Below the pieces are notes generated by a model. That model did not search any database, was not told the origin of the DNA, and saw nothing but the letters and a program-made list of their open reading frames with translations. Positions 8,009 to 54,822 of a DNA stretch of 64,000 nucleotides are shown here, one piece after another. This DNA comes from Solirubrobacterales bacterium. GTDB lineage: Bacteria; Actinomycetota; Thermoleophilia; Solirubrobacterales; 70-9. The DNA is taken from contig JAOPZF010000188.1 in assembly GCA_025964255.1 (NCBI GenBank), positions 3,374 through 67,373 of the forward strand, written 5' to 3'. Position 1 is the first letter of the stretch. Every line of letters starts with the position of its first letter. The position numbers and the translations under genes are program-made.

Positions 8009-8079
8009 CGCCTGAGCGCCTACCCGTCGTGGCGGATTTCTACGGCACCGGCCGCGATCGGCTCGTCGAGAAGGCGGAG

Positions 8080-8167
8080 CGGAGGGACTGGGATTCGAAC
8101 CCAGGAGACGCCTAAGACGCCCAACGGCTTTCAAGGCCGCCGCATTCAACCGCTCTGCCATCCCTCC
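8080..8167 (-). tRNA. tRNA-Ser (anticodon UGA)
   Basis: GGAGGGA...TCCCTCC acceptor stem, anticodon loop CUUGAAA, long variable arm, GGTTCGAATCC T-loop. Confidence 0.9.
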
Positions 8168-8176
8168 GAGGGCTGA

Positions 8177-9358: not shown

Positions 9359-9359
9359 G

Positions 9360-18212: not shown

Positions 18213-18264
18213 AATCTCCGCCTCCCGCGGAGCGGCCGCCCCCGTGCGCCCACTCCGCCGGCAT

Positions 18265-18338
18265 GCGCCCGTAGCTCAGCCGGATAGAGCGTCGGTCTAC
18301 GAAACCGAAGGTCACTGGTTCGAATCCAGTCGGGCGCA
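18265..18338 (+). tRNA. tRNA-Arg (anticodon ACG); integration target of the downstream islets
   Basis: GCGCCCG...CGGGCGC acceptor stem plus discriminator A, anticodon loop CUACGAA, GGTTCGAATCC T-loop. Its 3' half recurs four more times downstream. Confidence 0.9.
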
Positions 18339-18448
18339 TTCGCGCATTCCGCTTGCCTATTGGTTTTGCGGCTTCTCCGGCGCTCAATCTGAGGACGAAA
18401 TGGAGCCGTGGGGCACGGCATGGGGCACGGTGACGTCGAAGGAGTGGC

Positions 18449-18940
18449 TCAATTAGCCTTGAGATCCAGTCCAGCGCCCTGCACTTTTCTGGGATGTTCG
18501 CTTCCGCCCAGAGCCCGCGAAATTCGCTCCACCGCGTCCGTCGACACCTCGTGCTCCCACACCCTGATGACGGTCCACCCGGCGGTGCTCAGCTGGGCCT
18601 CATTCAGGCGGTCTCGCTCGACGTTTCGGCCGATCTTGGCGCGCCAATAACCAGCGTTCGTCTTCGGGCTCGTTCCGTGGTCGGGGCAGCCGTGCCAGAA
18701 GCAGCCGTCCACAAAGACGGCCACCTTCTTACGCGGGAAGACGATGTCCGCTCGGCAGCGGAGCGTTGCGATCGGCCTCGTATCGACTCGATATCGGAAT
18801 CCGCGTCGATGAAGCTCAGAGCGGATGGCCAGCTCAGGGCGAGTGTCCCGCTTGCGGTTCCCCTGCATCGCTGCCCTAACAGCTGGCGACGAAGCTTCGG
18901 GCGCTTTGGGAACGGTGATGATCGGTCGTCTGGCGCTCAT
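18449..18940 (-). CDS. vsr: very short patch repair endonuclease (Vsr)
   Basis: RPELAIRSELHRRGFRYR, DIVFPRKKVAVFVDGCFWHGC and YWRAKI motifs. Confidence 0.9.
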   Translation of the reverse strand: MSARRPIITVPKAPEASSPAVRAAMQGNRKRDTRPELAIRSELHRRGFRYRVDTRPIATLRCRADIVFPRKKVAVFVDGCFWHGCPDHGTSPKTNAGYWRAKIGRNVERDRLNEAQLSTAGWTVIRVWEHEVSTDAVERISRALGGSEHPRKVQGAGLDLKAN

Positions 18941-20102
18941 TCCATCGGGGGCAGATTCTAGGTTGACAGGCGTGGATGCGATTTCTCTCTTCTCGGGAGC
19001 TGGCGGCCTCGACCTCGGTTGCGAGGCGGCGGGTTTCGACACGCTCGCAGCCGTCGAGTGGGATGAGACTGCGCGGAGGACGATGCTCGCTAACCGCTCG
19101 GAGTTCTTCCCGCAGCTGCGGGAAGAGGCGGTGTTCAGCGACATCCTCGAGACGGAGCCGCAGGATCTGCTGGAGCGGAGCGGCCTCGAATCAGGAGAGG
19201 TGTCTCTGTTGCACGGTGGGCCTCCATGCACCCCCTTCTCCAAGTCCGGCTATTGGCTCGCCTACAAGCGCGCGGGAGAAGACCCGCGGGCAAGTCTGCT
19301 CGACGAGTACATCCGCATGCTGCGAGGCGTTCAGCCGAAGGCGTTTCTCATGGAGAACGTTTACGGGTTGGCCTATCGGAACCAGAATCGCGCGGTGCTC
19401 GAGCGATTCCTGCAAGCGGCGCGGGCCGCCGGTTATGTCGTCGAGTTTCGGATCGTCCTCGCCGCGGATCTCGGCATCCCACAGCTTCGGCAGAGGCTCT
19501 TCTGCGTCGGTATCCGTCGTGATCTCATCTCAGGCTCCTCAAGAGGCTGGGAGTTCGAGTGGCCAGAGCCGACGCACTCAGGCCCGCATGAGACGCGAAC
19601 CGGCTGGAACGAGAACTTGCCGGTCCACGTCAGCGCTGGCCAGGCGCTTGCGTCACTGCCCGACGAGATCAATCCGCCCGAGCCGGAGGAGGTCGTCGAC
19701 GGCACCTATGCCGATGCTCTTCACGCAGTTCCTGCCGGCGAGAATTACCTCTTTTGGACTGCCGAGCGCGGGCACAAGGCACCGCAGTTCAAGTGGCGGT
19801 CGCGCTACTGGAGCTTCCTGTTGAAGCTCCACCCGGACAAGCCGTCCCCCACGATCCAAGGGCAACCGGGTCCTTGGGTTGGGCCATTCCATTGGGACAG
19901 CAGGCGCCTGCGAGTCGCTGAGGTCAAGAGGCTGATGACTTTCCCTGACGACTTCACGGTCCTGGGATCTCGACGGGAACAACAACTCCAGCTCGGCAAC
20001 GCAGTCCCCCCAGACCTCGGGCGAGCGATTGCGGCCGCGATCGCCGACGAACTGAGGTGCCTCGATTCTGCGCCCTCACCGGAACTTGCGCTGGCCGCTT
20101 AG
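18918..20102 (+). CDS. dcm: DNA (cytosine-5)-methyltransferase
   Basis: Motif I ISLFSGAGGLDLG, motif IV GGPPCTPFS, motif VI FLMENV, QLRQR, motif X GNAVPP. Start is either ATG 18918 (overlaps the vsr 5' end) or GTG 18972. Confidence 0.9.
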   Translation: MIGRLALIPSGADSRLTGVDAISLFSGAGGLDLGCEAAGFDTLAAVEWDETARRTMLANRSEFFPQLREEAVFSDILETEPQDLLERSGLESGEVSLLHGGPPCTPFSKSGYWLAYKRAGEDPRASLLDEYIRMLRGVQPKAFLMENVYGLAYRNQNRAVLERFLQAARAAGYVVEFRIVLAADLGIPQLRQRLFCVGIRRDLISGSSRGWEFEWPEPTHSGPHETRTGWNENLPVHVSAGQALASLPDEINPPEPEEVVDGTYADALHAVPAGENYLFWTAERGHKAPQFKWRSRYWSFLLKLHPDKPSPTIQGQPGPWVGPFHWDSRRLRVAEVKRLMTFPDDFTVLGSRREQQLQLGNAVPPDLGRAIAAAIADELRCLDSAPSPELALAA

Positions 20103-20163
20103 GTAGCGGCGCGACCTGCCTGGCATCCTGAGTGCCGGAAGGTTGGGTTAGCTTTCCTGCGAC

Positions 20164-21234
20164 ATGGGGATCCGGTTCGAAGACCAGGCGCTACTTCTCG
20201 CTCTCGATGACGCGCTTGCGCTGGCGCGTTCAACCGAGGAGTTGCCTTCTCTCTGGGTCGCCCGCGTTGAACGTCTCGGTGGCCTAGGGATCAAGACCTA
20301 CATCGCGGCACTGGGCGGCGCCATGCTCGCCAAGGCGACCGATGCCCGGATCGACAGTCTCGCCCAGGACGAGGCGGCGGGCCCTCGCGGTTACAGCCTT
20401 CGGAGAGCTGCCGAGTTTCTCGCTCAGCAGAACAACGATCGATACGACTTGGGCGCGAAGGGACGTTGGCCCCTGAACAATCGGCCCTTCCTTGGCGGCC
20501 CGACCCGAATCGACGACTTCACGAAGATCTCGGGGAAAGCACGACCGGCCTACGAAGCCTTCCTCGACGCGCTCCGGGATCTCAATCGAATCGAGGGCGC
20601 CGAAGCTCTCGCGGTTCTGGCGGCGTTCCTTCGTGTGCGCATGGCCGTTCAAGAGGCCGAGCGAGAGGCGGCCCGCGCGGCCAGAAAGCTCGACAGCAAC
20701 GTCGCCCTCGAGGATCTCGTCGGCATGGCCGACCGATTTGTTCGGGCCGACCCGGAAGGCGGGAAACGCGCCCAGGCACTTGCCGCCGCAGTTTTCGACT
20801 GTGCGTTCGACGATGTTGAGCTCCAGCCCGTCAACAGCCCTCATCCGGGCGACGTTCGGGTTCGCTTGGACCAGGCGATCGTTCTCGCGGTGGAGGCAAA
20901 GCAGCTCCCGGTCAGTGAGGATGTGGCGTCCGAGCTTTCACGAGAGGCAGCCGGACTCGGCGCCGATCTGGCGTTGTTATTTGTGATCGCCGACAGACAC
21001 GCGCCTCTTGATCGTGATCGAGTCCAAAGAGATGCACTGCGCGACGACGGCACCCTTCTTCTTGTGTGCGAGAGCGTCCTGGAGCTGATTGCCTCGGCGG
21101 CGGTCCTTTCCGCGACGTCAGCGGCCCAGGTGGAGGCGGACCTTCCCGGCGGATTCGCGGTCCGAATGCGGGAGATCGAGGTCAGCAAGAACGGCCAGGA
21201 CGAGTGGAGACAACTAATCGAGTCACGATCCTGA
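20164..21234 (+). CDS. putative type II restriction endonuclease partner of the methyltransferase
   Basis: Lies immediately downstream of dcm. Possible PD-(D/E)XK core (PGDVRV...LAVEAKQ). No family recognised with certainty. Confidence 0.45.
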   Translation: MGIRFEDQALLLALDDALALARSTEELPSLWVARVERLGGLGIKTYIAALGGAMLAKATDARIDSLAQDEAAGPRGYSLRRAAEFLAQQNNDRYDLGAKGRWPLNNRPFLGGPTRIDDFTKISGKARPAYEAFLDALRDLNRIEGAEALAVLAAFLRVRMAVQEAEREAARAARKLDSNVALEDLVGMADRFVRADPEGGKRAQALAAAVFDCAFDDVELQPVNSPHPGDVRVRLDQAIVLAVEAKQLPVSEDVASELSREAAGLGADLALLFVIADRHAPLDRDRVQRDALRDDGTLLLVCESVLELIASAAVLSATSAAQVEADLPGGFAVRMREIEVSKNGQDEWRQLIESRS

Positions 21235-21367: not shown

Positions 21368-23068
21368 TCAAGCGCTCCAGCCTTTTACCGCGAGTCTGGC
21401 AAGTTCGCTGGTACGTCTTTCGATGATGGCCTTCGTCCAACTCTTACGTTTCAATGCTTCGGTGGTAAGGGGCGTTTGTTGCCCAAAGGACCGAATTCGC
21501 TGCTTCTTCATCGCCCACTCCCTATTCGCCAAATCGTCATTGGCTCCAGATGGGCCGTCGACCAAAATAAGATTGCCGAGCATATAGGTGTACGAGGGAA
21601 GATCTTCCGCGGTAAATGCGGTCCATTGCCCTTCGGCCGGGGATCTCGGCAAGACGTGCTCGACCGTAAGCGTATCTCGCGGCTTCAGGCCCGACTTATT
21701 CGCGATCTTCTGGTACTCGAGTGCATAAAGGACTGCACGTGCACGTTTGTGCGAAGTTGGGCGGTCGAATGGGAATCGCTGAAATCGCGCCAAGAACTGT
21801 GCGTCACTGAGCGTAAGCATTTCCGTGTCGACGAAATGGGACTTGAGTTGCGGAACGGTAGTTATTGTCCGGCTCTGTATTCCCAGGGCGCCCCGTATAT
21901 AGGCCCGCTCCGCATCGCCCCCACCCGTCCGATCATCGACGAGCCCGCGCATTGACCATGCCGTAATTTTGAGCACCGCGCTACGTTGTCGGTTGCGTCC
22001 AGACTTCGTCGGTTTCTTGCCCGCAAGGTCTCGCATTACGGCAAGGAGCAAGTACCGAAGCTGTTTAAGTCCCAAGCCGTTGAGTAGCTCTATGGCTTGT
22101 TGCGTGCCAGGACCGATCTGATCCCAAAGCGCACTAGAGTCGCCTGGATCAGCGAGGCCGCGGTAGAGCTTGGCGTTCTCGATGAGTTCTTCGAGGGCCG
22201 CTAACGCATCGGTATTAGCGATAGCTGTTCGATAGTCCGTGAAGAATTCCGCTTTCGTAGTTCGACCGTAGCGAGACCCGAAATAGTGGAGGAGGAAACT
22301 CTCTAGATCGTCCTCGTATCGGCCGCTCGAATCCTTAAGCGCCCCGATGACTTCGTTCCACTTTAGGATCGCCAGGCCAGTGTCGGTTGCTCGCGAAATC
22401 AGGTGGCTCTTAACTAAGTCCCCGTTCGACAGTCGAACTCCGCGCGTATTTAAGGTCTCGAAAATGTTGTGTGCGTCCCTTGCGCGGACACGCAGGACGA
22501 CAACATAAGCCTCCTGACGAAGAAAGGTCCCCCATTGCTTTAGCCGGGCAAGTCGGGCGTCCGGTGAAGGTCTCGATTGAAGGTCCGCTTTCAGGTGGGA
22601 GGACAGGCGAGAGCGTGCGGCAACCAATCGTTTCGATGACTCCAAAGAATCGCCGCGTATTCCCGCGCGATTAAGCAAGACTTCCTGATCTTGGGGGCTG
22701 ATACGCAGCGGCACGGATGGGTTCTGCCGAAGGGCTGGAACGACTGCGGCCATAGCGTCGTTGGCAATCTGCGAATCGTGAGGTCCCGAAGCCTTTGCAT
22801 CCTCGATCTCGCTGAAGATCGACGAGGCGAACAGAAGCGTGGTGGCAAGCCGCTGTTGACCGTCTTGAATCTGGTCGTTGGTGTCGAGCACCACCAAGCC
22901 GAGGAAGTAGTCGTCGGGGGGGCGCGCATCCATGGCCCGCTTCAGGTCGGCCCAGAGCTCATCGATCTGCTGGCGCTTCCAGGCGAACGTGCGCTGGAAG
23001 GCGGGCGTCTCCAGTTCGCTCCCGTGATCGAGTAACTGGAGGATTCCCGTGCGTTCAGGAGAGGCCAA
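21368..23068 (-). CDS. GmrSD-type DUF262/DUF1524 protein (type IV modification-dependent restriction enzyme family)
   Basis: DUF262 motifs PAFQRTFAW and IQDGQQRLAT. C-terminal His-Me/DUF1524 motif TVEHVLPRS...LGNLILV. The ORF is open to 23371; TTG 23068 is preferred because DUF262 starts right after it. Confidence 0.75.
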   Translation of the reverse strand: MASPERTGILQLLDHGSELETPAFQRTFAWKRQQIDELWADLKRAMDARPPDDYFLGLVVLDTNDQIQDGQQRLATTLLFASSIFSEIEDAKASGPHDSQIANDAMAAVVPALRQNPSVPLRISPQDQEVLLNRAGIRGDSLESSKRLVAARSRLSSHLKADLQSRPSPDARLARLKQWGTFLRQEAYVVVLRVRARDAHNIFETLNTRGVRLSNGDLVKSHLISRATDTGLAILKWNEVIGALKDSSGRYEDDLESFLLHYFGSRYGRTTKAEFFTDYRTAIANTDALAALEELIENAKLYRGLADPGDSSALWDQIGPGTQQAIELLNGLGLKQLRYLLLAVMRDLAGKKPTKSGRNRQRSAVLKITAWSMRGLVDDRTGGGDAERAYIRGALGIQSRTITTVPQLKSHFVDTEMLTLSDAQFLARFQRFPFDRPTSHKRARAVLYALEYQKIANKSGLKPRDTLTVEHVLPRSPAEGQWTAFTAEDLPSYTYMLGNLILVDGPSGANDDLANREWAMKKQRIRSFGQQTPLTTEALKRKSWTKAIIERRTSELARLAVKGWSA

Positions 23069-23321
23069 TGTGCGGATCCTAAGGCGCGCTCCAGACGCGT
23101 CCCTCGCGTGCCCTGCCGGTAGTGTCGGGAAATGCCTACGTATATATTTGTAAACAGGTATGGAGACCGCTGGTGCGGAGTTGGGATAATTGTGACCATG
23201 CAGCGATGGAAGAACGAAGTTGCCCAGTCCATCGTCTATTCGGGCGAGAGTGATTGTCAGGGGGATCGCGCCTGCCTCGTGGAGGCAAGAGTTGTCTTGA
23301 AACCATTGCTGGAGGCCGACA

Positions 23322-26300
23322 ATGTCTACGACGCCCAGTCGCCCCCGAAAACCGGTTTCTAGGAAGAGCACAAAGGAGAAGTCAGGGTCGACCCGACTAC
23401 TGGCTGACCGCTACGCGCTGCCTGCTGATTTCCGCGAAGGCGGCATGGCCCGGGTCTACAAAGCTGTCGACCTACGGGCCGACAGCAGGATCGTCGCGGT
23501 CAAGATTCTCGACCGCCAGCCCGACGACGCCGCCGTCGCGATGGCCTTCGAGCGCGAGGCCAAGTCGCTTGAGAAACTGAGCCACCCCAACATCGTCGAG
23601 TTGCTCGACGCTGGGCGCGACGGCGAGGAGCGCTATCTCGTCTTCGAATGGATGGAGCAGACGCTCGCCTCGGCGCTGACCACGCCCCCCGGCTGGGAGG
23701 AGTACTTCCGCCGCTGGGGGATCCCGATCCTGAGCGGGCTCGCCCATGCTCACGGCGAGGCAATCGCCCACCGCGACCTTAAGCCTGCGAACGTCCTCCT
23801 CGACGCCGAGCAGCGCCCGCGGATCTCCGACTTTGGCATCGCCAAGATTGTTACCGGCTTCAACCTCGGGCACACCTTGCGCGCCTGGCACTCCGAGCCC
23901 TACACGCCCCCGGAGGCCGACGACGGCATCCACTACTACCAGCGCGACGTCCACGCCTTCGGCGTCCTCTCGCTCTTGGCCTTGACCGGCATCGACCCCG
24001 GAAGCGAGGAGTTCGCGAGCCCCTATGAGGCGATCGAGCGAGCGCTGGGGGAGCTCCAATGCCCCGAGGAGATCGCCGATCTGCTCGCCCGGTCCGTCGC
24101 CGAGGACTGGCATGAGCGGCCCGAGGACGGGGCGGTAGCCCTCGCATCGCTCGAGCAAATCCTCGGCCGCCGGCGGCGCAGCGAACGCGGACCGGGGCTG
24201 CCTCTCTACCTCGCCATCAGTGACAAGGTAGCCCGCTACCTGACCGAGGAGCGGGACCTGCGCACCGCCGCCGAGCAGGAGCGCCATCTGCTTGAGGAGC
24301 TTGAAGGCGGAGCCGCCGTGGGGGCGTTCCCGCAGGGTCGCTTCGATGACGGCAACTCGACCGAGGATCATTACCTTCTCTTCGTCGCGACGCTGCGGCT
24401 TCACGTGCTCGTTAACGGAGCCCGTGACCGTCTGCACGTGGTCGCCTGCCTGGCGATGCGGCCCTCCTACCTGGAGCGGGAGCGGGAACGCTCCTGCGAT
24501 GTCGAATTCGACTGGCGCTTCGGGTCCGCTCCCGCCGAGGAGGGCGGTGATGCGATAGCCGCCCTGGAACGCGAGGTTGAAGAGCACCGTTCCGCACGGC
24601 GGCTTGGGGGTCGCGACAGTGCCGACAGCCTGATCGGCCGTTGGCGCCGCCAGCTGATCGCAACCCGCGCCCTCGAGATGGAGGCTGTGGTCAGCGCCCG
24701 CTACAGAGAGCGCAGGATCGTCGGCCGCTCGATCGAATTTAGATGCCTCGAGGAAGTCCCAGAAGAGCTGCTCGGTGAGACGGTCGCCGACACGGCCGAG
24801 GGCGGGTTCGTGCGCGGCGAGGTGATCCTGATCGAGAGCCGCCGGGTGGTGATGCGGGTCGACGACGGCGACCCACGTGACGTGGCGGCTCAAGGGGAGC
24901 TCCGCACCGACACTGGGGGGATGACCGCCGCGATCAACCGCCAGCACCGGGCGCTCGACTCTCTGGACGAGGACACTGCCGCCCGCAAGGACCTGAAGAG
25001 TCTGGTGGTCGACCCTGCCCTCGCGCGCGCACCCGAGCCGCGCACGGTCACGGACTGGATCCAGGATGTCGACCAGGCGAAGAAGGAGATCGTCTGCCGG
25101 GCGCTTGGCACCGGCGACATCCTCCATGTCGAAGGGCCGCCCGGCACCGGCAAGACGACGCTGATCACTGAGTTAATTCTGCAGGCGCTGCGCGACGATC
25201 CTGATCGGCGGATCCTCCTGTCCGCGAAGACCAACGCCGCGCTCGACAACGTGCTCGAGCGGGTCGCCCAGAAGAATCCCGAGTTGAATCTGATCCGCGC
25301 CGGGCGGATCGATGACCCGCGGGTGTCGGAGGGCGCGGCCGGTTACCTGATCGAGCGCCAGGTGAGGCGCTGGCGCAAGAATGTTGAACGGCGAGGCCGC
25401 AAATTCCTCGCCGCCTGGGCCAAGGAGCGCTCAATCTCCCAGCGTGCGGTCGAGACCGCGACGCTCCTTGAGGAGCTTGCACGCCTCCTCGAGACCTCCT
25501 CCGAGCTCGAAGGCACGCTCCGGGCTCTCGAGCGCGAGCTGGCCCGCATGCGCGCCAAGGATGCCGGGACCGGAACCACCTCGGTGGAGGTGCTCGAGGG
25601 CTTGGTGGAGACGGAGTCCGAGCTGCGGACCCGCCGTAAAGATCTCCAGCATGACCGTGGCGAGCTGATCGATCGCCTGAGCGAGCTCGGTGCGGGAAGC
25701 AAGCGAGAAATTGGAGCGTCGGACCCCGCCGAGTTGCGCGGGCGGGCCCGCGCCGAGGTTCCGGAGCGAACACCCGAGGTCGAGCAATGCCAGCGCATGA
25801 TCGCGGTCCTGGCCGAGTGGCACGCACGCTTCGGCCGCGGCCAGGGCTTCAGTGGCGCCGCTCTCGGCCGGGCGCAGGTTGTCGCCTCGACCTGTGTCGG
25901 CTATGACGGCATTGACGGCGCGGCCGCGATCTCCTTCGACCTGTGCATCGTTGATGAGGCGTCCCAAGCGACGCCGCCGGAGGTCCTGATCCCGATGACG
26001 CGGGCCCGGTCCTGGGTCCTCGTCGGAGACAGCCGTCAGCTCCCGCCCTTCGCTCACCAGGCGCTGCGCGACCCCGAGGTGCTCGCCGAATACAACCTCA
26101 CCGAGGGCCAGGCGCAGGAAACTCTCTTTTCGCGCTGGGGCGCAGGACTCGGCACGGACTCCCGGGCGGCCCTGCGGCTCCAGCACCGCATGGCCCCGGC
26201 TATCTCGAAGCTGATCAGCCACTGCTTCTATGACGGGACTCTCGAAGATGCCGAGGTCGAGAGCCGCAAGGACGTCTTGAGCGCCCTGCCGGCACCGGTG

Positions 26301-26792
26301 ACCTGGTATTCGACGAGCGCGCTCGAGCACCGCTTCGAGCGCCGCGACGGGACGAGTTGGGTCAACAACCTCGAGACCGAGATCGCCCGCACGTTCCTTG
26401 GCGTGCTCGATCTTGCTGCCCGCTCTCCCCTGTCGGTCGCGGTCCTCAGCGGCTACGCGCCGCAGGTGGGCGCGGTCGAGCGGGCGCTCAGCGCATCGCG
26501 GTGGCGCCGACTGGTGGTGGACTGCAGCACGATCGACGCTTATCAAGGTCGGGAGAGCGACATCGTGGTCTACCTGGTCACTCGTTCGAACCCGGCCGGA
26601 AAGCTGGGCTTCCTAGGCGAGCGGCCACGTCTGAACGTGGCCCTTTCGCGTGCCCGCGAAGGCCTCGTGATCATCGGTGACCAGGAATTCATCGAACTTG
26701 CCCCGGGCGCCAATCCGTTCCGGCCGGTCCTCGCCCACATACGCGGTGCCTCGGACTCCGAATGCGCGATCGTGCCGGCGCCGCAGCCGTGA
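23322..26792 (+). CDS. Hanks-type Ser/Thr protein kinase fused to an SF1 (Upf1/DNA2-like, AAA_11/AAA_12) helicase
   Basis: Kinase: GGMARVYKA, VAVKIL, HRDLKPANVLL, DFGIAK. Helicase: Walker A GPPGTGKTT, motif II CIVDEASQA, VLVGDSRQLPPF, AYQGRESDIVV, LNVALSRAREGL, with a coiled-coil insert between motifs I and II. Confidence 0.85.
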   Translation: MSTTPSRPRKPVSRKSTKEKSGSTRLLADRYALPADFREGGMARVYKAVDLRADSRIVAVKILDRQPDDAAVAMAFEREAKSLEKLSHPNIVELLDAGRDGEERYLVFEWMEQTLASALTTPPGWEEYFRRWGIPILSGLAHAHGEAIAHRDLKPANVLLDAEQRPRISDFGIAKIVTGFNLGHTLRAWHSEPYTPPEADDGIHYYQRDVHAFGVLSLLALTGIDPGSEEFASPYEAIERALGELQCPEEIADLLARSVAEDWHERPEDGAVALASLEQILGRRRRSERGPGLPLYLAISDKVARYLTEERDLRTAAEQERHLLEELEGGAAVGAFPQGRFDDGNSTEDHYLLFVATLRLHVLVNGARDRLHVVACLAMRPSYLERERERSCDVEFDWRFGSAPAEEGGDAIAALEREVEEHRSARRLGGRDSADSLIGRWRRQLIATRALEMEAVVSARYRERRIVGRSIEFRCLEEVPEELLGETVADTAEGGFVRGEVILIESRRVVMRVDDGDPRDVAAQGELRTDTGGMTAAINRQHRALDSLDEDTAARKDLKSLVVDPALARAPEPRTVTDWIQDVDQAKKEIVCRALGTGDILHVEGPPGTGKTTLITELILQALRDDPDRRILLSAKTNAALDNVLERVAQKNPELNLIRAGRIDDPRVSEGAAGYLIERQVRRWRKNVERRGRKFLAAWAKERSISQRAVETATLLEELARLLETSSELEGTLRALERELARMRAKDAGTGTTSVEVLEGLVETESELRTRRKDLQHDRGELIDRLSELGAGSKREIGASDPAELRGRARAEVPERTPEVEQCQRMIAVLAEWHARFGRGQGFSGAALGRAQVVASTCVGYDGIDGAAAISFDLCIVDEASQATPPEVLIPMTRARSWVLVGDSRQLPPFAHQALRDPEVLAEYNLTEGQAQETLFSRWGAGLGTDSRAALRLQHRMAPAISKLISHCFYDGTLEDAEVESRKDVLSALPAPVTWYSTSALEHRFERRDGTSWVNNLETEIARTFLGVLDLAARSPLSVAVLSGYAPQVGAVERALSASRWRRLVVDCSTIDAYQGRESDIVVYLVTRSNPAGKLGFLGERPRLNVALSRAREGLVIIGDQEFIELAPGANPFRPVLAHIRGASDSECAIVPAPQP

Positions 26793-28111
26793 ATACCGCC
26801 GAGGTGGCGCGACGCTTCGCGGGCAGCCGCTCGGGCTTCACGCTGGTCGGGTTCGGCGAGGTCGGCATCCCCTTCTACCGGCTGAGCCTCCGGGCCCAGG
26901 TGCTTGAGAGAAAGCCGGTGCCCCCGATGGAGGAGATCGTGATGCTGGCCCTCGATTCGGGACTCGAGGAGCGCGGGACGATCCGCGGCCTTCTCGGACT
27001 CGATGGCGACCTCTTCGACGTGATCCTCGCCGAACTTCTGCGGAAGGAGGAGATCGCCATCCGCGGTACGGGAGACACGGGAGCGCTGCAGCTCACCCCC
27101 GCCGGGCGCGAGGTCCTCGAGTTGGCGCGGGAGATAGCTCCTGCCGACCGCCCGCTAGAGGTCCATTACGACGCCCTGTTGCGCGAAGTTGTGCCCTACG
27201 TCGCCGGCCTGATCGACGCCCGCAGGGTCGACTCGCTTGGACTACGCGAGATTCCGCCGGCGAGCGCACGACCACCGGAGCTCGGAGCCCTTGACCCCGA
27301 GGCTGTCCAGCGCGCGGTGATGGAAGTCCCGAGGGCGGACGCGGTGAGCGCGGACCTCCTCGCGCTACGGCGGATCGACCGCCGGACTCGTACCTTCCGT
27401 GGGGCGACGCTCCTCGTCTACCGAAGCGACGAGCGCAAGGAAGTTCAGGTGGCGCTCGTGCTTGACGGAGAGATCTCTGAAGCCCACGGCGCTGCCTTCT
27501 CCAGGGCCCGCCTGAACACGAAGTCCGGTGTCCGGGCATCGGCCATGGAGGACCCCGCTGAACTCTTTCGAGCGGCCTTCGGGCGCGACCCGGATCAGGA
27601 GCCAACACCCGGCGGGGACCGGCGATACCGGGATTTCGAGGCTCTCGACTGCTTCGAGCTACCCGGCCGATTGGCGCAGGCGTTGGAGGAGCCTCGCAAA
27701 CGGATCGTCCTAATCTCTCCCCGCCTCACGGAGAAGTCGCTCACCCCCGATCTCCTCGATTCCGTGCGCCATCGACTGGCAGAAGGCACGGAGATATCGA
27801 TCGGCATCGGTCCGGAGGCCCGGGGTCCTGCCGAACGGGACCTCGAACGCAAGCCTTGGCGTCAGCTCGACGAACTCTTCCGGGGATACCCGAACCTGAC
27901 GCTGCGACGGCTTCATCGCCCTGGACCGGCGATGCTGGTCATCGACCGAGAGCAGGCGATCCTTACGAGGCTCAACTGGCTGGGTCACGAGGGTGATCCG
28001 AACCGCAGCTTTGTGGACGAACGTGGCGTACTGCTGAACGATGTCAAGCTCATCGATTGGCTCGCAGCCGAGGCCCTCGCGCGGGTCTCCAGCCGCAGAG
28101 AATCCGCCTGA
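26789..28111 (+). CDS. partner protein: N-terminal domain of unknown function plus C-terminal PLD-like domain with a non-canonical HKD site
   Basis: GTG start overlaps the upstream TGA (GTGA at 26789..26792). The C-terminus RIVLISPRL...LRRLHRPGPAMLVIDREQAILTRLNWLG resembles the PLD-nuclease HxK(x)4D(x)6GSxN block, but H and K are not in the canonical positions. Confidence 0.6.
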   Translation: MNTAEVARRFAGSRSGFTLVGFGEVGIPFYRLSLRAQVLERKPVPPMEEIVMLALDSGLEERGTIRGLLGLDGDLFDVILAELLRKEEIAIRGTGDTGALQLTPAGREVLELAREIAPADRPLEVHYDALLREVVPYVAGLIDARRVDSLGLREIPPASARPPELGALDPEAVQRAVMEVPRADAVSADLLALRRIDRRTRTFRGATLLVYRSDERKEVQVALVLDGEISEAHGAAFSRARLNTKSGVRASAMEDPAELFRAAFGRDPDQEPTPGGDRRYRDFEALDCFELPGRLAQALEEPRKRIVLISPRLTEKSLTPDLLDSVRHRLAEGTEISIGIGPEARGPAERDLERKPWRQLDELFRGYPNLTLRRLHRPGPAMLVIDREQAILTRLNWLGHEGDPNRSFVDERGVLLNDVKLIDWLAAEALARVSSRRESA

Positions 28112-28264
28112 CAGGAAAAGAGAGGTCGGATCTCGGATGTCCTCCTGGATGGGGCACGAAATGGGGCACGGTGCCACGCAGATCCCAGCCGATCTCAGCC
28201 GAGTCCGATCTGCCAGGGATCCGCCAGGAATCCACCTCCACGTAGCCCAGCCGAGTCCCCGGGG

Positions 28265-28309
28265 CGGTCTACGAAACCGAAGGTCACTGGTCGAATCCAG
28301 TCGGGCGCA
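28265..28309 (+). repeat. direct repeat B of the tRNA-Arg 3' half (att-like)
   Basis: cggtctacgaaaccgaaggtcactgg-tcgaatccagtcgggcgca. Identical to 18294..18338 except for a 1-nt deletion. Confidence 0.9.
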
Positions 28310-28518
28310 TCCGCGCAAGCCCGCTTGGGAAGCGGAATGCGTTCCGCGGTGATCATCCGCCGGGACCCGAAAAAGGGTCATGGGGCACGCCCTGGGGCAC
28401 GGTGAGGTCCGCCGCAGGCCTTGAGAAGCCGTGCTCGTTCCACCTATGTACGTCGGGATCGACCATGCGCCGCGTGGCGGACGGGCTGGCGGCGCCCGTC
28501 AGAAGGAGGAACCGTCGC

Positions 28519-31095: not shown

Positions 31096-31133
31096 GAAAC
31101 CGAAGGTCACTGGTTCGAATCCAGTCGGGCGCA
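31096..31133 (+). repeat. direct repeat C of the tRNA-Arg 3' end (att-like)
   Basis: gaaaccgaaggtcactggttcgaatccagtcgggcgca is an exact match to 18301..18338. Confidence 0.9.
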
Positions 31134-31678
31134 TTCCTGCGCGTGCCGTACGACGCCGCGCTTTCCCGGTCCAGAGCCAAACCCTCAGCTCGAGGACTGA
31201 TCAGCGTTCCGGCGGCTCCGGATGCTGGCGATCATCTGCTCCGGCTGCTCGAACTGCCGATGACCGTTGGCGATTGGCTTTGGATCAACGAAACCTATGA
31301 ACGAAAGCGTCGGGGTCCCTGGAGGTCGTCGAGTCGGAGATTCGTTTTCGCGCAAGTCCAGCACCAGGGCAAATCAGTCAACTCTTCGGGGCCGTGGTCA
31401 AAGCGCTTTGGAAACGCGTCGACAGGCGCAGAAAACTAAAGGTTGGAGAGACGAAGCGGCGCTGGGCCGGATCAACAAGCGGCGGAATCGGATCGCTCAC
31501 GCTGGCGATCGTGTCGCAGAGGGAGAGCGACCACTTCTAGCAATGAGGTCAACGCAGATCTCAGCTGCATCGTTGAGCGATACGGTCAGCGACCGACTCT
31601 TCCTGAGAGCAACGGGAGGAGGCGGGCTTGGGGCAACTGCCCGGTGCCGGAGCCCTTAGCGCCACGAATCGACGCCGG

Positions 31679-33430: not shown

Positions 33431-34888
33431 CTAGATTGTCTCCCCTTCGGCGATCTCCGCACGCCCGTTTCCGGCCGCCAGCCACTGCTGCAGAAGATGC
33501 GCCGTCATCGGCTGGGCAAACAGGAAGCCTTGGACAGCGTCGCATCCCATGCGCGCCAACTGCTCCAACTCCTCGCGAGTCTCCACACCCTCCGCGGTAA
33601 TTCGAAGATCGAGTTGTCGCCCGAGGTCGATTATCGACCGGACCACTCGCATTGTGCGCTGGTCGGATCCCATCCCGGCGACAAATGAGCGATCGATCTT
33701 GAGCTCGTCCAGAGGCAGCAGGCTGAGGCGACCCAATGAGGAGTAGCCGGTACCGAAGTCATCGATCGAGATGGTGACGCCGAGCTCGCGAAGCTCGGCG
33801 AGCCTGCGAGCCGCGTTCGCTCCCTCGGCGCTCATGAGCCCGCTCTCGGTGACCTCCAAAGTGAGCATGGCCGCCGGGAGCCCGGAACTGTTGAGCGCCC
33901 GGGTCACCTGGTCGACGACGTTATCTCCGGCCAGCGCCGGGGCGGAGATATTGACCGCGACCGGGAGCTCCAGGCCCTCGTCCCGCCAGTGCGCACAGGC
34001 CGCGGTCGCCTGCTCGAGCACCGTGTCGGTGAACTTATCCAGCAGCCGGCTGCCCTCCAGCAACGGGACGAACACGCCGGGTCCGAGAAGTCCTCGCTCG
34101 GGATGGTTCCAGCGCACCAACGCCTCGGCTCCGAGCACCGTGCTCGGCGGGATCGAGAACTGCGGCTGGAACAACAGCTGCAGCTCGTCGCGGTCCATCG
34201 CGACATCCAGGCGGGCCAGCGTGCGCTCCCGCTCGCGGTCCTGTCTCGTCGGCAAGCGCTGGACCATCCAGGTCATCAGCGGCACCAATGCCGCAAAGAG
34301 GAGAACGGCACCGATCCCGACCGCCAGATAAAGCTTCTCCCGAACGTTGTCGAGCTGACTCTCCACTGCCGGGCGTGGCAACGTGATCTCGGCCACGAAG
34401 CGCCGCCCGCTCGTTCCGAATGCCACCGCCGTACGGACATCGAGGATGCCCTGATCGTTGGCGACGACGGCTTGGCCCCGGTTCGTCCGCAAAGCCGTTC
34501 GCGCCAGGGTCGGGAGGGGCGCGGACGAACTCGTGCTCCTGTGGCCCGCCGCGTCGCTGAAGAGAAGACGCCCGGCCGGGTCCCACACGAGGACGCCCTT
34601 CAGGCCCAATATCGACCGAGCGGCGGAGAACTGCGCTTCGGCGGCAACCACGTCGGCATGGCTGAGGCGGCCATCGCTGATCGCCCCCGCGAAGGCGACC
34701 TCCGCGAGGAGTTCGCCGTCGTGGATCGCGCTGCTCCGGCCACTTTCGATCATGCCGTCTTCGGCGATCGAGGTCGCCACGAACGCGCCCCCGGCGCCGA
34801 TCAGCAAGGCGAGCAGAGCGAGCAAGACCACCAGGCGCCGCCTGCCGGTCTTGCTGAGGTGTCGCCGAACGTCAATTGACTCAGTCAA
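33431..34888 (-). CDS. membrane-anchored EAL-domain protein (putative c-di-GMP phosphodiesterase) with a periplasmic-type sensor region
   Basis: Two TM segments flank an approximately 190-aa region. EAL domain motifs: QPQF...GAEALVRW, ELTES-like LEVTESG, DDFGTGYSSL, KIDRSF, EGVET. Start uncertain (TTG 34888, GTG 34831 or TTG 34825). Confidence 0.8.
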   Translation of the reverse strand: MTESIDVRRHLSKTGRRRLVVLLALLALLIGAGGAFVATSIAEDGMIESGRSSAIHDGELLAEVAFAGAISDGRLSHADVVAAEAQFSAARSILGLKGVLVWDPAGRLLFSDAAGHRSTSSSAPLPTLARTALRTNRGQAVVANDQGILDVRTAVAFGTSGRRFVAEITLPRPAVESQLDNVREKLYLAVGIGAVLLFAALVPLMTWMVQRLPTRQDRERERTLARLDVAMDRDELQLLFQPQFSIPPSTVLGAEALVRWNHPERGLLGPGVFVPLLEGSRLLDKFTDTVLEQATAACAHWRDEGLELPVAVNISAPALAGDNVVDQVTRALNSSGLPAAMLTLEVTESGLMSAEGANAARRLAELRELGVTISIDDFGTGYSSLGRLSLLPLDELKIDRSFVAGMGSDQRTMRVVRSIIDLGRQLDLRITAEGVETREELEQLARMGCDAVQGFLFAQPMTAHLLQQWLAAGNGRAEIAEGETI

Positions 34889-34893
34889 TTGAC
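34871..34893. promoter_or_regulatory. tandem palindromic operator GTCAATTGAC-tca-GTCAATTGAC in the divergent EAL / XRE-MEDS intergenic region
   Basis: Two perfect 10-bp palindromes at 34871..34880 and 34884..34893 (13-bp spacing), directly upstream of the HTH regulator gene. Confidence 0.6.
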
Positions 34894-34923
34894 AACACGG
34901 TAACACGTGCCAGAATTCGACAG

Positions 34924-35673
34924 ATGGGGGGTAAACCGGACAATGGGGCAGTCGCGCTTCGGATGAAGGCCGCTCGGGGTCGGGCCGGGATGTCTCGTGA
35001 GGAGCTGGCGGTGCAGAGCGGCTTGAGCTGGTCGGCCATCGCGCAAATCGAGGATGGCCGTCGTCCCCATCCCCGCGCCGACACGCTGGGTGCGCTGGCG
35101 CCAGCCTTGGGGGTGAGCGTCGACTATCTCTTAGGTAACGATGGTACGGCCGCCGCGCTGCTCGACCACCAAGCCCTGATCTACGCCGATGTAGCCGCCT
35201 TCGTCGAGACGGCCGCTCCGTTTCTGCAGGAGGGTGCCGAAACGGGGGAGGCGATCTTGGTGGTCGCCGATCCTGAGAACGTCGAAGGCTTGAGAGAGGC
35301 CCTTGGCCGCCCGGCGGCAAAGATCCACTTCGGCGATTGGCAGACGTGGTATGCCTCACCCCGGAAAGCGCTGCTCGGATACCGGCAGTTCGCAACCGAG
35401 GCGCTGGATGCGGGAGCGCCCTGGGTCCGCATCGTCGGCGAGCCGGTCTGGGCCGACCGGACTCGCGACGAGATCGATACCTGGGTGCGGTACGAGGCGC
35501 TGATCAATCTGGCCTTCGCCGCGCTGCCGATGAGCCTGATCTGTCCCTACAACGAGAGGGTGGTCGACCCAGAGATCCTCCGCAACGCCCGGATGACCCA
35601 TTGCCGCTGCCTCGAGCGCGGCCAGAGCACGGAGAACCCGGACTTCGGGGATCCCTTGGACTTCTGCCTTTAG
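34924..35673 (+). CDS. XRE-family HTH regulator fused to a MEDS (DcmR-like sensory) domain
   Basis: HTH MSREELAVQSGLSWSAIAQIEDGRR. The C-terminal part resembles MEDS (HQALIY..FLQEG...GEAILVVA...RIVGEPVW...EALINLAF). ATG 34924 is preferred over TTG 34876, which lies inside the palindrome. Confidence 0.7.
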   Translation: MGGKPDNGAVALRMKAARGRAGMSREELAVQSGLSWSAIAQIEDGRRPHPRADTLGALAPALGVSVDYLLGNDGTAAALLDHQALIYADVAAFVETAAPFLQEGAETGEAILVVADPENVEGLREALGRPAAKIHFGDWQTWYASPRKALLGYRQFATEALDAGAPWVRIVGEPVWADRTRDEIDTWVRYEALINLAFAALPMSLICPYNERVVDPEILRNARMTHCRCLERGQSTENPDFGDPLDFCL

Positions 35674-40234: not shown

Positions 40235-41481
40235 ATGCGATTGAGAAGACTCTCCTATCTGATCATTTCCCTGTGCGCCGTGGCGGCTCTGGCGGCCGGG
40301 TCCGCCACTGCCGAGACCGGCTTCGGCCCCGGCACGGGAATCGAACCGGGGACGTCTTTCACGCCTCTCGCCGCGTCGACGATGACCACGCCGACCGCGG
40401 TGCTCGGGACCGACGGGAAGCAGCACATCGCCTACGAGCTGCTCCTCACCAACGCGACCGCCGCGGCGCCAAGGTCGAAAAGCTCGAAGTGCGCGCCCCG
40501 GGGGTGACGAAGCCGCTGGCAAAGATCGGAGGCTCCCAGCTGATCGCCGACATGACGCGACTCGGCGGACTGCCCGAAGGCGCGCCACCGGCCGAAGCGA
40601 CGACGATCCCCGCGGGCTCGGTCGGCGTCGTCTGGCTCGATGTCACGCTGCCCGCGACGGAAGCCGTGCCGAGCAAGCTCGAGCATCGCGTCACCGCCAC
40701 CCTTCTCGTCCCCAAACCGTTCCACTTCACCGCCGACCTCGACTCGGTCAAGAGCGGGACGCGCGCACCGCTCGTGCTCGGCCCGCCGCTGCGCTCCGGC
40801 ACCTGGGTCGCCGACGAGGGTTGCTGCTCGGAGCCGACCCATCACCGCCGCGGGCTCGCCCCGATCGACGGCAGGCTCCTGGTACCTCAGCGCTTCGCGA
40901 TCGACTGGGCGATGGTCGACTCTCACCACCGGGCCTGGGTCGGTGACCCCAGCAAGCTGAGCAGCTACTTCGGCTTCGGTCAGCCCGAGATCGCCGCCGC
41001 CCCCGGGACCGTCGTCAGCGCGGTCGACGGGATCGCCGAGAACCAGCCTCAAGGCCCACTGACCGAACTCCCACCGATCCAGAACACGGTCGGCAACCAC
41101 GTGATCCTCAAGGTCGCGCCGGGCCGCTTCCTTCTCTACGGGCATATGAAGACGGGCTCGGTCCGGGTCAAGGTGGGGCAGAAGGTGCGCGAGGGCCAAC
41201 TGCTCGGCCAAGTCGGAAACACCGGCAACTCGAGTACCCCGCACCTTCACTTTCAGGTGCTCACGGAGCCGACCTTCTTCCCCTCCGACAGCGTCCCCTT
41301 CACCTTCGCCCACTTCTCGCTGCTGGGACAGGTGACCGACCCGTTCACCGACGAAACGCTGGCCTTGCAGCCGACTGGAACGATCCCGATCGCACCGTCC
41401 AAGGCAGGCGGGCGCTCCCGTCGAGCGGAGATGCCTCTCGACCTGAACGTCATCCGCTTCCAATCCCAAAAGGGAGGATGA
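40235..41481 (+). pseudogene. M23 family metallopeptidase with an apparent single-nt frameshift near 40464..40470
   Basis: Signal peptide and N-domain (to ...YELLLTNATAAA) are in one frame. The continuation AKVEKLEVRAPG... with the catalytic GNHVIL...GNTGNSSTPHLHFQV is in another frame. The upstream extension of the second frame is Arg-rich junk. Confidence 0.55.
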
Positions 41482-41508
41482 CCGAAGGAGCCTGCGAGGC
41501 TTCACGGC

Positions 41509-52532: not shown

Positions 52533-52560
52533 ACGCCGGTCCCGAAATCGGAGGTATGAA

Positions 52561-54216: not shown

Positions 54217-54219
54217 CCG

Positions 54220-54798: not shown

Positions 54799-54822
54799 GG
54801 TCTTGTTAATGAGGATGGGTTC

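Follow-up and report, generated by a model that had tools for sequence, protein, structure and literature searches.

Type I Mokosh consists of an STK-helicase and a PLD nuclease (Millman et al. 2022, preprint 10.1101/2022.05.11.491447). In the Mokosh systems tested, mutation of the PLD active site abolished defence (10.1101/2022.05.11.491447). The mechanism of type I Mokosh is not yet known (10.1101/2025.07.10.664194; PMC13276650). PLD folds also occur as pseudo-PLD domains, such as those of the FAM83 proteins, which anchor CK1 kinases (PMC6008594). The locus described here carries a gene pair of the type I kind, and defence in the lineage to which it belongs probably does not involve the nuclease step regarded as defining Mokosh.

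Organization of the locus

Two ORFs, mkoA (1156 aa) and mkoB (440 aa), were found in the window, i.e., the whole 64-kb stretch of DNA that was analysed (Table 1). They are adjacent and have the same orientation, in the one-operon arrangement of type I Mokosh. The exact MkoA sequence is present in NCBI nr. The PADLOC model MkoA PDLC03920 matches the first protein from end to end (E=1e-212, aa 25-1150 to profile positions 5-1107 of 1112), and MkoB PDLC03922 matches the second with E=3e-55. The two halves of MkoB are also recognized separately (N-terminal 6.6e-36, C-terminal 3.5e-15), the PLD domain alone covering profile positions 482-597 of 610. Alignment with 20 canonical MkoB by hhalign gave a probability of 100 and E=5e-91 over 434 columns, so the partner is homologous to MkoB. 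These matches indicate that the pair is a type I Mokosh homologue by descent, composed of the kinase-helicase MkoA and the partner MkoB. A preliminary description had called the pair type I Mokosh-like, in agreement with the PADLOC results, and had proposed either a divergent Mokosh or a distinct kinase-helicase system. Divergence within Mokosh holds, as opposed to an unrelated kinase-helicase system. The module is a new Mokosh variant with a pseudo-PLD MkoB.

In the NCBI annotation, mkoB starts from the ATG at 26762 and encodes a 449-aa hypothetical protein (MCW2981116.1). The GTG start was preferred over this in-frame ATG since all homologues start at the aligned MNxAEIARRF and the ATGA/GTGA overlap is identical in six of six related loci. 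The overlap of this GTG with the mkoA stop, reported previously, was read directly in the sequence and indicates that mkoA and mkoB are translationally coupled. A candidate promoter lies 132 nt upstream of mkoA; the consensus scan gave one site against 0.2 expected, which is weak evidence.

The pair lies within a tRNA-Arg island of about 10 kb in a Solirubrobacterales bacterium, which contains Vsr, Dcm, SacI-like REase and GmrSD genes and thus corresponds to the defence island with RM and GmrSD neighbours described earlier. A 41-nt direct repeat has its left copy at 18301-18341; the right-border copy belongs to an almost whole, degenerate tRNA copy; a third copy, 100% identical, is located at 31096-31136. 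GmrSD is divergently adjacent to mkoA, with an ORF that extends over the mkoA start. The GC content of the island defence genes is 0.60-0.64 vs. about 0.70 in the flanks. From homology and the defence-island setting, an anti-phage role is predicted for the pair.

Table 1. Features of the mkoAB locus and of the surrounding island (window positions)
Feature	Position	Strand	Basis or description
Left border: tRNA-Arg(ACG) and left direct-repeat copy	18264..18341	+	ARAGORN; repeat family D1; alignment
Vsr-domain ORF	18449-19243	-	Pfam Vsr 1.8e-17
Dcm C5-methylase	18825-20102	+	Pfam DNA_methylase 8.6e-56
SacI-like REase	20164-21234	+	Pfam RE_SacI 3.9e-17; PADLOC REase_II
GmrSD	21368-23371	-	Pfam GmrSD_N/GmrSD_C; PADLOC HEC-06/Orf5
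Sigma-70-like promoter candidate	23161..23190	+	TGGAGA-18-GATAAT, TG extended -10
mkoA	23322..26792	+	Hanks Ser/Thr kinase fused to Upf1-like SF1 helicase, 1156 aa; NCBI MCW2981115.1
MkoA kinase domain, aa 39-266	23436..24119	+	Pfam Pkinase E=2.9e-32
MkoA middle region, aa 267-583 (~317 aa)	24120..25070	+	Covered by end-to-end PADLOC MkoA profile
MkoA SF1 helicase core, aa 584-1121	25071..26684	+	Pfam AAA_11 and AAA_12
GTGA overlap (mkoB GTG start, mkoA TGA stop)	26789..26792	+	Read directly in the sequence
mkoB	26789..28111	+	MkoB homologue, PLD domain predicted to be catalytically dead; 440 aa from GTG
MkoB winged helix-turn-helix, ~aa 45-115	26921..27133	+	AF2 and Foldseek
MkoB PLD-fold domain, ~aa 290-435, without HKD catalytic residues	27656..28093	+	Foldseek and MkoB profile
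Pseudo-HKD P378-G379-P380-A381-M-L-V-I-D386	27920..27946	+	Aligned to canonical T-H-A-K-V-L-I-x-D
Right border: near-identical repeat copy (one indel) of tRNA-Arg 3' end	28272..28312	+	Repeat family D1; alignment

The kinase-helicase MkoA

The Ser/Thr kinase domain characteristic of type I Mokosh is present in MkoA with the motifs VAVK at aa 58, HRDLKPAN at 150 and DFG at 170, and the residues K61 (VAVK), D152 (HRD) and D170 (DFG) are intact. Its closest solved relatives are StkP and PknB. The helicase part is matched by AAA_11 at aa 584-911 (4e-39) and AAA_12 at aa 933-1121 (3.6e-37) and contains GPPGTGKTT (aa 605), DEASQ (878), GDSRQLPPF (902), YQGRE (1074) and ALSRAR (1107). Walker A K611 and DE878/879 are intact, as in COG1112/Upf1-like SF1 helicases, the closest solved relatives being IGHMBP2, Upf1, Nam7 and DNA2 (about 1e-30 against the PDB for Upf1 and IGHMBP2). 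The AAA_11 match extends over 328 residues but only 252 profile positions; the insert of about 75 aa in RecA1 is therefore real. The middle region gave zero matches in the Pfam search; being part of the canonical MkoA profile, it is a conserved canonical region and not peculiar to the window locus. Canonical cyanobacterial MkoA are equal to window MkoA in length and architecture. Every motif quoted in the preliminary description for the 1156-aa fusion was thus located, and the uncharacterized stretch of about 300 aa between kinase and helicase, as well as the helicase insert, were recovered.

MkoB and the loss of the HKD site

The AF2 model of MkoB has a pLDDT of 82.4. The N-terminal region extends to about aa 285 (pLDDT 81), the part outside the wHTH consisting of long beta-hairpins. 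Foldseek search of this region against the PDB returned MarR-type wHTH matches only (rmsd about 2 Å over 75-80 residues, E about 5e-3); no nuclease fold was among them, and none reached E<=1e-3. The N-terminal domain is covered by the canonical MkoB profile; hence, it is not peculiar to the window locus. The linker of about 45 aa that precedes the PLD domain in canonical MkoB is deleted in the window clade.

As had been proposed for the C-terminus of the partner, a PLD alpha/beta fold was found there by Foldseek, with NucT (6ehi, E=3e-6, TM 0.64 normalised to target), Zucchini (4gem), PLD3/4, vaccinia F13 and FAM83 DUF1669 among the matches (FAM83 structures 5qhm, 5lzk and 4urj at ranks 5, 10 and 38). 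The pLDDT is about 81-96 over most of aa 290-440 and falls locally to 76 and 64.

In a profile-profile alignment with canonical MkoB, RPGPAMLVID falls opposite xTHAKVLIxD. The catalytic His is replaced by Gly379 (codon 27923-27925) and the Lys by Ala381 (codon 27929-27931; GTG numbering). The HKD His nucleophile and the Lys of catalytic PLD-superfamily members, and with them the HxK(x)4D nuclease site of type I Mokosh, are therefore absent from window MkoB, and the alignment indicates that the HKD site is lost, not merely non-canonical. The preliminary description was correct that the site is degenerate, both residues being replaced throughout the clade, and mistaken in its position: H376 of 'LHRPGP', taken for the catalytic His, is non-conserved and lies three positions upstream of the true site Gly379. 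A Pfam search of window MkoB yielded no PLDc or PLDc_2 match, so that among the families named in that description Pkinase, AAA_11 and AAA_12 were matched and PLDc_2 was not. Canonical relatives match PLDc_2 and the PLDc active site motif, the latter lying exactly on HAKVLIxD in P0020, P0022 and P0024; the degenerate P0097 and P0149 match neither. No HxK(x)4D motif was found in any frame of the window, and no invariant His or Lys occurs in the C-terminal 150 residues across the clade. Catalysis in the PLD superfamily proceeds via a covalent phosphohistidine, the HKD His being the nucleophile. Since this nucleophile is required, clade MkoB would be unable to act as the phosphodiesterase effector of canonical Mokosh.

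Conservation of the clade

The window clade comprises 20 members of about 430 aa, including two Solirubrobacterales MAGs, with 49-64% identity to window MkoB. All 20 carry Gly in place of the His, and Ala, Gly or Ser in place of the Lys; RPGP...D...R...L..G...DxR is invariant. The clade is rare, accounting for 1 of 34 evaluable loci in species-representative genomes. The pair is conserved as neighbours, a point raised in the preliminary description: the 4-nt overlap with the upstream mkoA is kept in six of six clade loci examined, one of which (L039) has a frameshifted mkoA. MkoA is unbroken in the other five, window included, with catalytic kinase and helicase motifs. Apart from the window, HRD, DFG and Walker A were found in four of four loci with unbroken mkoA, and Walker B in five of five when L039 is included.

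The flanks vary from EF-G and a HAD hydrolase (L002) to type I RM (L040) and integrase/AbiE/ParE (P0016), and L039 and L041 have none of these. At one locus, a bare mkoAB pair is inserted between housekeeping genes. No third gene conserved beside mkoAB was found across the compared clade loci.

In the least saturated clade pair, the PLD-like domain has a dN/dS of 0.18 and the N-terminal region one of 0.12, which indicates that clade MkoB is under purifying selection. The ratio of PLD-like to N-terminal identity is about 0.75 in the window clade, whereas canonical MkoB of similar divergence reach about 1.2. For such a relatively relaxed PLD-like domain, partial loss of function fits as well as changed function. 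Catalytic loss is recurrent in the MkoB family, affecting 14 of the 149 representatives with high scores and some 9-10 lineages. At least one unrelated lineage, that of the degenerate P0168 (L042), lost the site independently and retains a kinase-helicase MkoA.

Possible mechanism of defence without nuclease

No substitute nuclease was seen in mkoAB, the MkoB N-terminal region giving a wHTH match only and the MkoA architecture being canonical. We infer that MkoB is a sensor or adaptor rather than a nuclease, which would fit all of the data. The MkoA helicase would still, in an ATP-dependent manner, sense or translocate on phage-derived RNA or replication intermediates. MkoB would be a non-catalytic subunit that either binds nucleic acid via the wHTH and an Arg-rich pseudo-PLD pocket or regulates MkoA. 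Infection would then be stopped by the MkoA kinase phosphorylating phage or host proteins, possibly together with helicase-driven remodelling, with no nucleic-acid cleavage; the kinase is placed as effector purely by inference. Taken as a whole, this kinase/helicase-output mechanism with MkoB as a non-catalytic adaptor has an even chance of being correct. The PLD site is essential in the characterised E. coli Mokosh systems, and a nuclease-free Mokosh would therefore be without precedent.

The Upf1-like helicase might itself be the effector, e.g., through recruitment of host RNases or by stripping or stalling RNPs or replication intermediates of the phage, with MkoB as a specificity or loading factor and the kinase only autoregulating the complex without acting on targets. 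The core is closest to Upf1, Nam7 and IGHMBP2, which remodel RNPs, Walker A and B are intact in window MkoA, and MkoB has a wHTH; furthermore, defence by the tested Mokosh systems depends on the helicase ATP-binding site (10.1101/2022.05.11.491447). However, every unbroken MkoA of the dead and canonical clades alike has the catalytic residues of the kinase, which argues for a real catalytic role. Such a division of labour is unlikely. It is slightly less likely still that the module no longer defends after loss of the nuclease site and is drifting towards loss itself. The rarity of the clade, the frameshift in L039 and a PLD-like domain that has diverged more than the N-terminal region, opposite to the pattern in canonical MkoB, would agree with such decay. 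Against it stand the dN/dS of 0.12-0.18 for the pair with unsaturated dS, the motif kept invariant in 20 members with only 49-64% identity to window MkoB, the start/stop coupling in all six loci, the unbroken MkoA with catalytic motifs in five of them, and the retention of the pair in unrelated contexts, including the bare pair between housekeeping genes.

Two further explanations would restore the cleavage step. The PLD-like domain could hydrolyse phosphodiesters via other residues, e.g., clade-specific arginines and D386: the domain retains the HKD Asp, the DERG motif and, where GSxN has its Asn, a polar residue (N, S or D), three clade-specific Arg positions (ISPR, xRPGP, TRF) line the former site, and the local AF2 confidence is high. 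Nevertheless, the invariant Gly at the His position, the Ala, Gly or Ser at the Lys position and the lack of any invariant His or Lys in the clade domain conflict with the need for a covalent phosphohistidine, and the known His-less PLD-fold proteins (FAM83, the TrmB C-domain) are non-catalytic (PMC6008594), so an active non-canonical nuclease is very improbable. Cleavage supplied in trans, whether by GmrSD, by the SacI-like REase or by an HKD protein encoded elsewhere in the genome, would accord with the defence-island location and with the divergently adjacent GmrSD overlapping the mkoA start; but the neighbours differ at every other clade locus, with no third gene conserved, and the HKD motif is absent from the 64-kb window. 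This explanation has hardly any probability.

With somewhat less than an even chance, the kinase/helicase-output mechanism could be extended to the statement that type I Mokosh is not universally dependent on PLD catalysis, the pseudo-PLD MkoB being an adaptor (nucleic-acid-binding or kinase-regulating) and the MkoA STK and helicase the antiviral output. If so, natural 'nuclease-dead' variants would provide a genetic handle for telling apart sensing, scaffolding and effector functions of Mokosh, which could by extension serve the MOV10L1/PLD6-like helicase-PLD partnership.

Comparison with known systems

The window pair resembles type I Mokosh in its full-length homologues, gene order, MkoA size and architecture, and defence-island setting. 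Unlike type I Mokosh, its MkoB has Gly and Ala in place of HxK, is missing the linker that precedes the PLD domain, and is not matched by the Pfam PLD families. Type II Mokosh MkoC, e.g., E. coli YjhR, is a single-protein helicase-PLD fusion that has the Upf1-like helicase in common with MkoA, and the window PLD-like domain shows weak similarity to the PLD part of MkoC (E=1.4e-3 at PDLC03924 positions 997-1103). In contrast to type II, the window has two genes, a kinase domain, an MkoB-specific N-terminal region and an apparently dead PLD site.

The vertebrate FAM83 DUF1669 is likewise a PLD fold without catalysis and binds the Ser/Thr kinase CK1 (PMC6008594). By analogy only, the MkoB pseudo-PLD domain may be likened to it as a kinase-binding module, although the two have no detectable sequence relationship and the FAM83 context is eukaryotic signalling. 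In archaeal TrmB/TrmBL2, as in MkoB, an N-terminal wHTH is followed by a non-catalytic PLD-like domain, and 5bpd aligns over about 392 columns. The rigid-body fit is nevertheless poor (rmsd 17-21 Å, TM about 0.4), an additional beta-rich domain is present in MkoB, and TrmB proteins act as DNA-binding regulators on their own, not as partners of a helicase. Together, FAM83 and the TrmB regulators may be regarded as precedents for reuse of the PLD fold as a binding module. The kinase-based anti-phage systems Stk2, PD-T4-6 and MADS MAD6 provide a precedent for phosphorylation as a defence output. The MkoA kinase matches the PD-T4-6 and mad6 models (1e-34 to 1e-41); the similarity is confined to the kinase domain, and MkoA differs from these kinases in its fusion to an Upf1-like helicase and in its MkoB partner.

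The gene pair and its family assignment

Both genes of the pair lie on the same strand, at the positions assigned to them in the preliminary description, and their proteins (MCW2981115.1 and MCW2981116.1) originate from a Solirubrobacterales MAG. All eight kinase and helicase motifs previously read from the kinase-helicase MkoA were found (aa 58, 150, 170, 605, 878, 902, 1074 and 1107), and Pfam matches to Pkinase, AAA_11 and AAA_12 were obtained over the intervals listed in the table. The nearest solved structures are StkP and PknB for the kinase and IGHMBP2, Upf1, Nam7 and DNA2 for the helicase. NCBIfam gave helicase and kinase matches only below threshold for MkoA and no model for its partner MkoB.

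Two starts are possible for mkoB: ATG 26762, used in the NCBI entry MCW2981116.1, or GTG 26789, which overlaps the mkoA stop as GTGA. The N-termini of MkoB homologues are all located at the residue aligned with GTG 26789, and an ATGA or GTGA start/stop overlap is kept in 6/6 related loci. The ATG is disfavoured on these grounds, and the GTG start, together with the translational coupling earlier deduced from it, is accepted.

Features of the mkoAB module and its surroundings (window coordinates unless marked aa)
Feature	Position	Strand	Details
mkoA (ORF1)	23322-26792	+	1156 aa; NCBI MCW2981115.1
Pkinase (Pfam) in MkoA	aa 39-266
AAA_11 (Pfam) in MkoA	aa 584-911
AAA_12 (Pfam) in MkoA	aa 933-1121
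mkoB (ORF2)	26789-28111	+
Catalytic His position in mkoB	27923-27925	+	Gly379 (GTG numbering)
Catalytic Lys position in mkoB	27929-27931	+	Ala381 (GTG numbering)
HKD segment, canonical MkoB			R-L-G-x-T-H-A-K-V-L-I-x-D
HKD segment, window MkoB			R-L-H-R-P-G-P-A-M-L-V-I-D
tRNA-Arg(ACG)	18264-18339
Almost complete degenerate tRNA copy	28240-28312
Left copy of tRNA-Arg 3' 41 nt	18301-18341
Copy of tRNA-Arg 3' 41 nt	28272-28312		one indel
Third copy of tRNA-Arg 3' 41 nt	31096-31136		100% identical
Vsr/Dcm C5-methylase/SacI-like REase module	18449-21234		Vsr on -
Longest GmrSD ORF	21368-23371	-
Promoter-like site for mkoA	23161-23190
ORF of 679 aa	28755-30794	+	Big_3_5 Ig-like domain (Pfam 9.4e-16)
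EAL-domain protein	33431-35395	-
Glutaminase fusion	41509-43320	+	Glutaminase (Pfam 7e-119), C-terminal cNMP_binding (4.5e-13)
Long ORF	3634-5727	+
Long ORF	7061-9385	-
Long ORF	40432-42900	-
Long ORF	52327-56097	-

Type I Mokosh is defined by an STK-plus-COG1112 helicase gene and a PLD nuclease gene, and its defence is lost when either the helicase ATP site or the PLD active site is mutated (Millman et al., 10.1101/2022.05.11.491447). Both ORFs match the PADLOC type I Mokosh models. MkoA aligns end to end with PDLC03920 (E=1e-212, aa 25-1150 on profile positions 5-1107 of 1112), and MkoB matches PDLC03922 at E=3e-55. Scanned alone, the N-terminal 277 aa of MkoB cover PDLC03922 positions 3-246 (6.6e-36) and the C-terminal 163 aa cover positions 482-597 (3.5e-15). 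In hhalign, the profile of the window's MkoB clade matched that of 20 canonical, HKD-bearing MkoB proteins with probability 100 (E=5e-91, 434 columns). The earlier reading of the pair as type I Mokosh-like, possibly a variant, is thus supported by homology to MkoA and MkoB and by the absence of the HKD site. The middle region of MkoA and the N-terminal domain of MkoB had been flagged as uncharacterised, but both fall inside the canonical profiles and are therefore ordinary type I Mokosh parts, not peculiar to this locus.

Loss of the PLD catalytic site

Pfam gave no match on MkoB and its close relatives. The canonical relatives P0020, P0021, P0022 and P0024 have PLDc_2 matches, and P0020, P0022 and P0024 also match the Pfam PLDc active-site motif, exactly on HAKVLIxD...SFNW. 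MAFFT alignments and hhalign concordantly place the catalytic His and Lys of the canonical segment at Gly379 and Ala381 of the window protein. The first position is Gly in 20/20 members of the clade formed by this protein and its relatives, and the second is Ala, Gly or Ser. The degenerate HKD site of the preliminary description is confirmed as lost, although the residue taken there for its His, H376, was the wrong one. As a shifted catalytic His, H376 was rejected: it is not conserved within the clade, and the position it aligns with, where the canonical consensus RLGxTHAK has Gly, also varies.

Canonical MkoB has a linker of ~45-50 aa, a predicted coiled coil by its look in P0020 and P0021, that is absent from the dead clade (at ~aa 270-285 of the window MkoB). 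Its loss coincides with that of the catalytic site.

The AF2 model of MkoB (pLDDT 82.4, pTM 0.75; ~87-96 around the pseudo-site) matched in the PDB NucT 6ehi (TM 0.64 normalised to target), Zucchini, PLD3/4 and vaccinia F13, as well as the catalytically inactive FAM83 DUF1669 domains. These matches confirm the PLD-like fold claimed for the C-terminus. TrmBL2, with its wHTH and PLD-like C-terminal domain, aligned with the model over ~392 columns, and the MkoB model would combine the same two elements. The N-terminal 283 aa, modelled separately (pLDDT 81), gave in Foldseek only MarR-type winged helices at ~aa 45-115; a substitute nuclease in this region was rejected, as the matches included no nuclease fold and nothing reached E<=1e-3. 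The clade profile had no meaningful match among PDB sequences, so no Mokosh structure is available.

Distribution of the dead variant and frequency of site loss

A search of 5.8 billion proteins yielded 19 relatives of the window MkoB, ~430 aa long and 49-64% identical. Among species-representative genomes, the clade occurs only in another Solirubrobacterales MAG (L002). A kinase-AAA_11-AAA_12 gene of ~1136 aa immediately precedes mkoB both in the window and at five further loci (the P0016 contig L001, L002, L039, L040 and L041). The flanks are unrelated between loci (EF-G and HAD hydrolase; type I RM; integrase, AbiE and ParE), and a conserved third gene was ruled out across the six contexts compared.

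Searched with a profile, 1.84 billion representative proteins contained 3031 MkoB-like clusters. Among the 149 alignable sequences of the best 150, His and Lys were kept in 135 and lost in 14, a share (9.4%) taken from a biased sample because dead-clade sequences made up most of the search profile. The substitutions differ from one to the next of the 14 degenerate representatives. Most of these are nearer a canonical sequence than one another, which implies ~9-10 probably independent losses of the catalytic site. In species-representative genomes, the canonical site was found in 33/34 evaluable loci and a degenerate one in 1/34; the canonical loci are mostly cyanobacterial and have the same MkoA architecture as the window. 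A metagenome scan for the degenerate lineage P0097/P0149/P0168 gave two loci. The usable one, L042 (P0168), is an independent degenerate lineage with an intact kinase-helicase MkoA upstream, and the pairing in other degenerate lineages thus has a generality of n=1.

Genomic island

The RM and GmrSD neighbours noted earlier are present, within an island at tRNA-Arg. The first pair of repeats of the 3' 41 nt of this tRNA delimits ~10 kb carrying a Vsr-domain ORF, a Dcm methylase, a SacI-like REase, GmrSD and mkoAB, with GC of 0.60-0.64 over part of it (~18-24 kb) vs ~0.70. Since the 41 nt are repeated twice downstream, two tandem insertions at the tRNA are suggested, ~10 kb of defence genes and then ~2.8 kb. 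The ORFs scanned in the two segments include no integrase. The sequences just 3' of the first two repeat copies are related (18396-18437 vs 28368-28409, 81%).

The Vsr/Dcm/SacI-like module is compact and directly follows the tRNA. The Vsr domain occupies aa 124-185 of its ORF, and the true Vsr start is probably internal because the listed ORF overlaps the methylase start. In its longest form, the GmrSD ORF shares 50 nt with the start of mkoA. Matches to Pfam and PADLOC models begin only at ~aa 105-117 of this ORF, and the promoter-like site for mkoA lies inside its 5' extension; the real start is therefore probably further downstream, GmrSD and mkoA being divergent rather than overlapping. The 679-aa protein of the second segment, apparently island cargo, has a signal-like hydrophobic N-terminus and Gly/Ser/Thr-rich repeats resembling a beta-helix, and is likely secreted or surface-located. 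Outside the island, the glutaminase fusion and the EAL-domain protein are housekeeping or signalling genes. The four long ORFs (697-1256 aa) without Pfam matches at E<=1e-4 may be spurious antisense ORFs at ~70% GC.

Possible mechanism and alternatives

Mokosh is among the commoner recently found anti-phage systems, and a kinship of this bacterial system with the MOV10L1/PLD6 pair of the piRNA pathway has been proposed. In its current working model, the PLD nuclease is the effector. PLD-superfamily hydrolysis proceeds via a phosphohistidine intermediate (summarised in 10.1101/2025.07.10.664194); since the catalytic His is gone, we infer that the window MkoB cannot be a nuclease effector. The most economical reading would be that MkoB is a non-catalytic adaptor, binding nucleic acid or regulating MkoA, that sensing of phage nucleic acid falls to the MkoA helicase, and that the kinase delivers the output, with or without helicase remodelling.

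Output by the helicase only is a rival explanation. Walker A is present in 5/5 unbroken MkoA genes of the clade and Walker B in 6/6, and the kinase HRD and DFG are likewise present in 5/5. Residual non-canonical catalysis by MkoB is another; the C-terminal 150 residues of the clade hold zero invariant His or Lys. A nuclease might also be supplied in trans, and here a six-frame regex for HxK(x)4D found none in the 64-kb window, excluding a second HKD gene nearby within that stretch.

The module could, finally, be in functional decay. The mkoA of L039 (JGI metagenome 3300046837) is frameshifted into ORFs of 722 and 432 aa (L039 4578-8004) beside an intact mkoB, which reflects either decay of this copy or a fault in the assembly. 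The PLD-like domain of the dead clade is relatively relaxed: the ratio of PLD to N-terminal identity at matched divergence is ~0.75, vs ~1.2 in canonical MkoB. Purifying selection acts on this domain, dN/dS (Nei-Gojobori) being 0.18 there and 0.12 in the N-terminal region for L001 vs L040, the least saturated pair (dS ~0.3). The nuclease-effector model is challenged by a clade whose two-protein architecture stays under purifying selection although the catalytic His and Lys are gone. Such conservation suggests a further, essential role of MkoB that needs no catalysis, and a kinase or helicase able to provide the output.

Comparison with known systems

The type I Mokosh proteins resisted purification in a 2025 survey (10.1101/2025.07.10.664194), and reviews up to 2026 describe Mokosh as incompletely characterised. 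The full-text searches turned up neither a catalytically inactive MkoB nor a mechanism for type I. HMM-based tools of the PADLOC type would call such loci 'Mokosh type I' with no flag for the absent nuclease site. The conserved and recurrent loss of the supposed effector site is surprising and offers a clean experimental handle on the type I mechanism.

Precedents for a PLD fold that has been turned to binding, for MkoB by analogy only, are the FAM83 proteins, whose pseudo-PLD domains anchor CK1 kinases (PMC6008594), and the TrmB regulators. The module itself is a recognisable known system. Compared with type I Mokosh, the window pair is homologous in both proteins, and it is type I Mokosh by descent, but it lacks the HKD nuclease site of MkoB, which is among the features that define the type.
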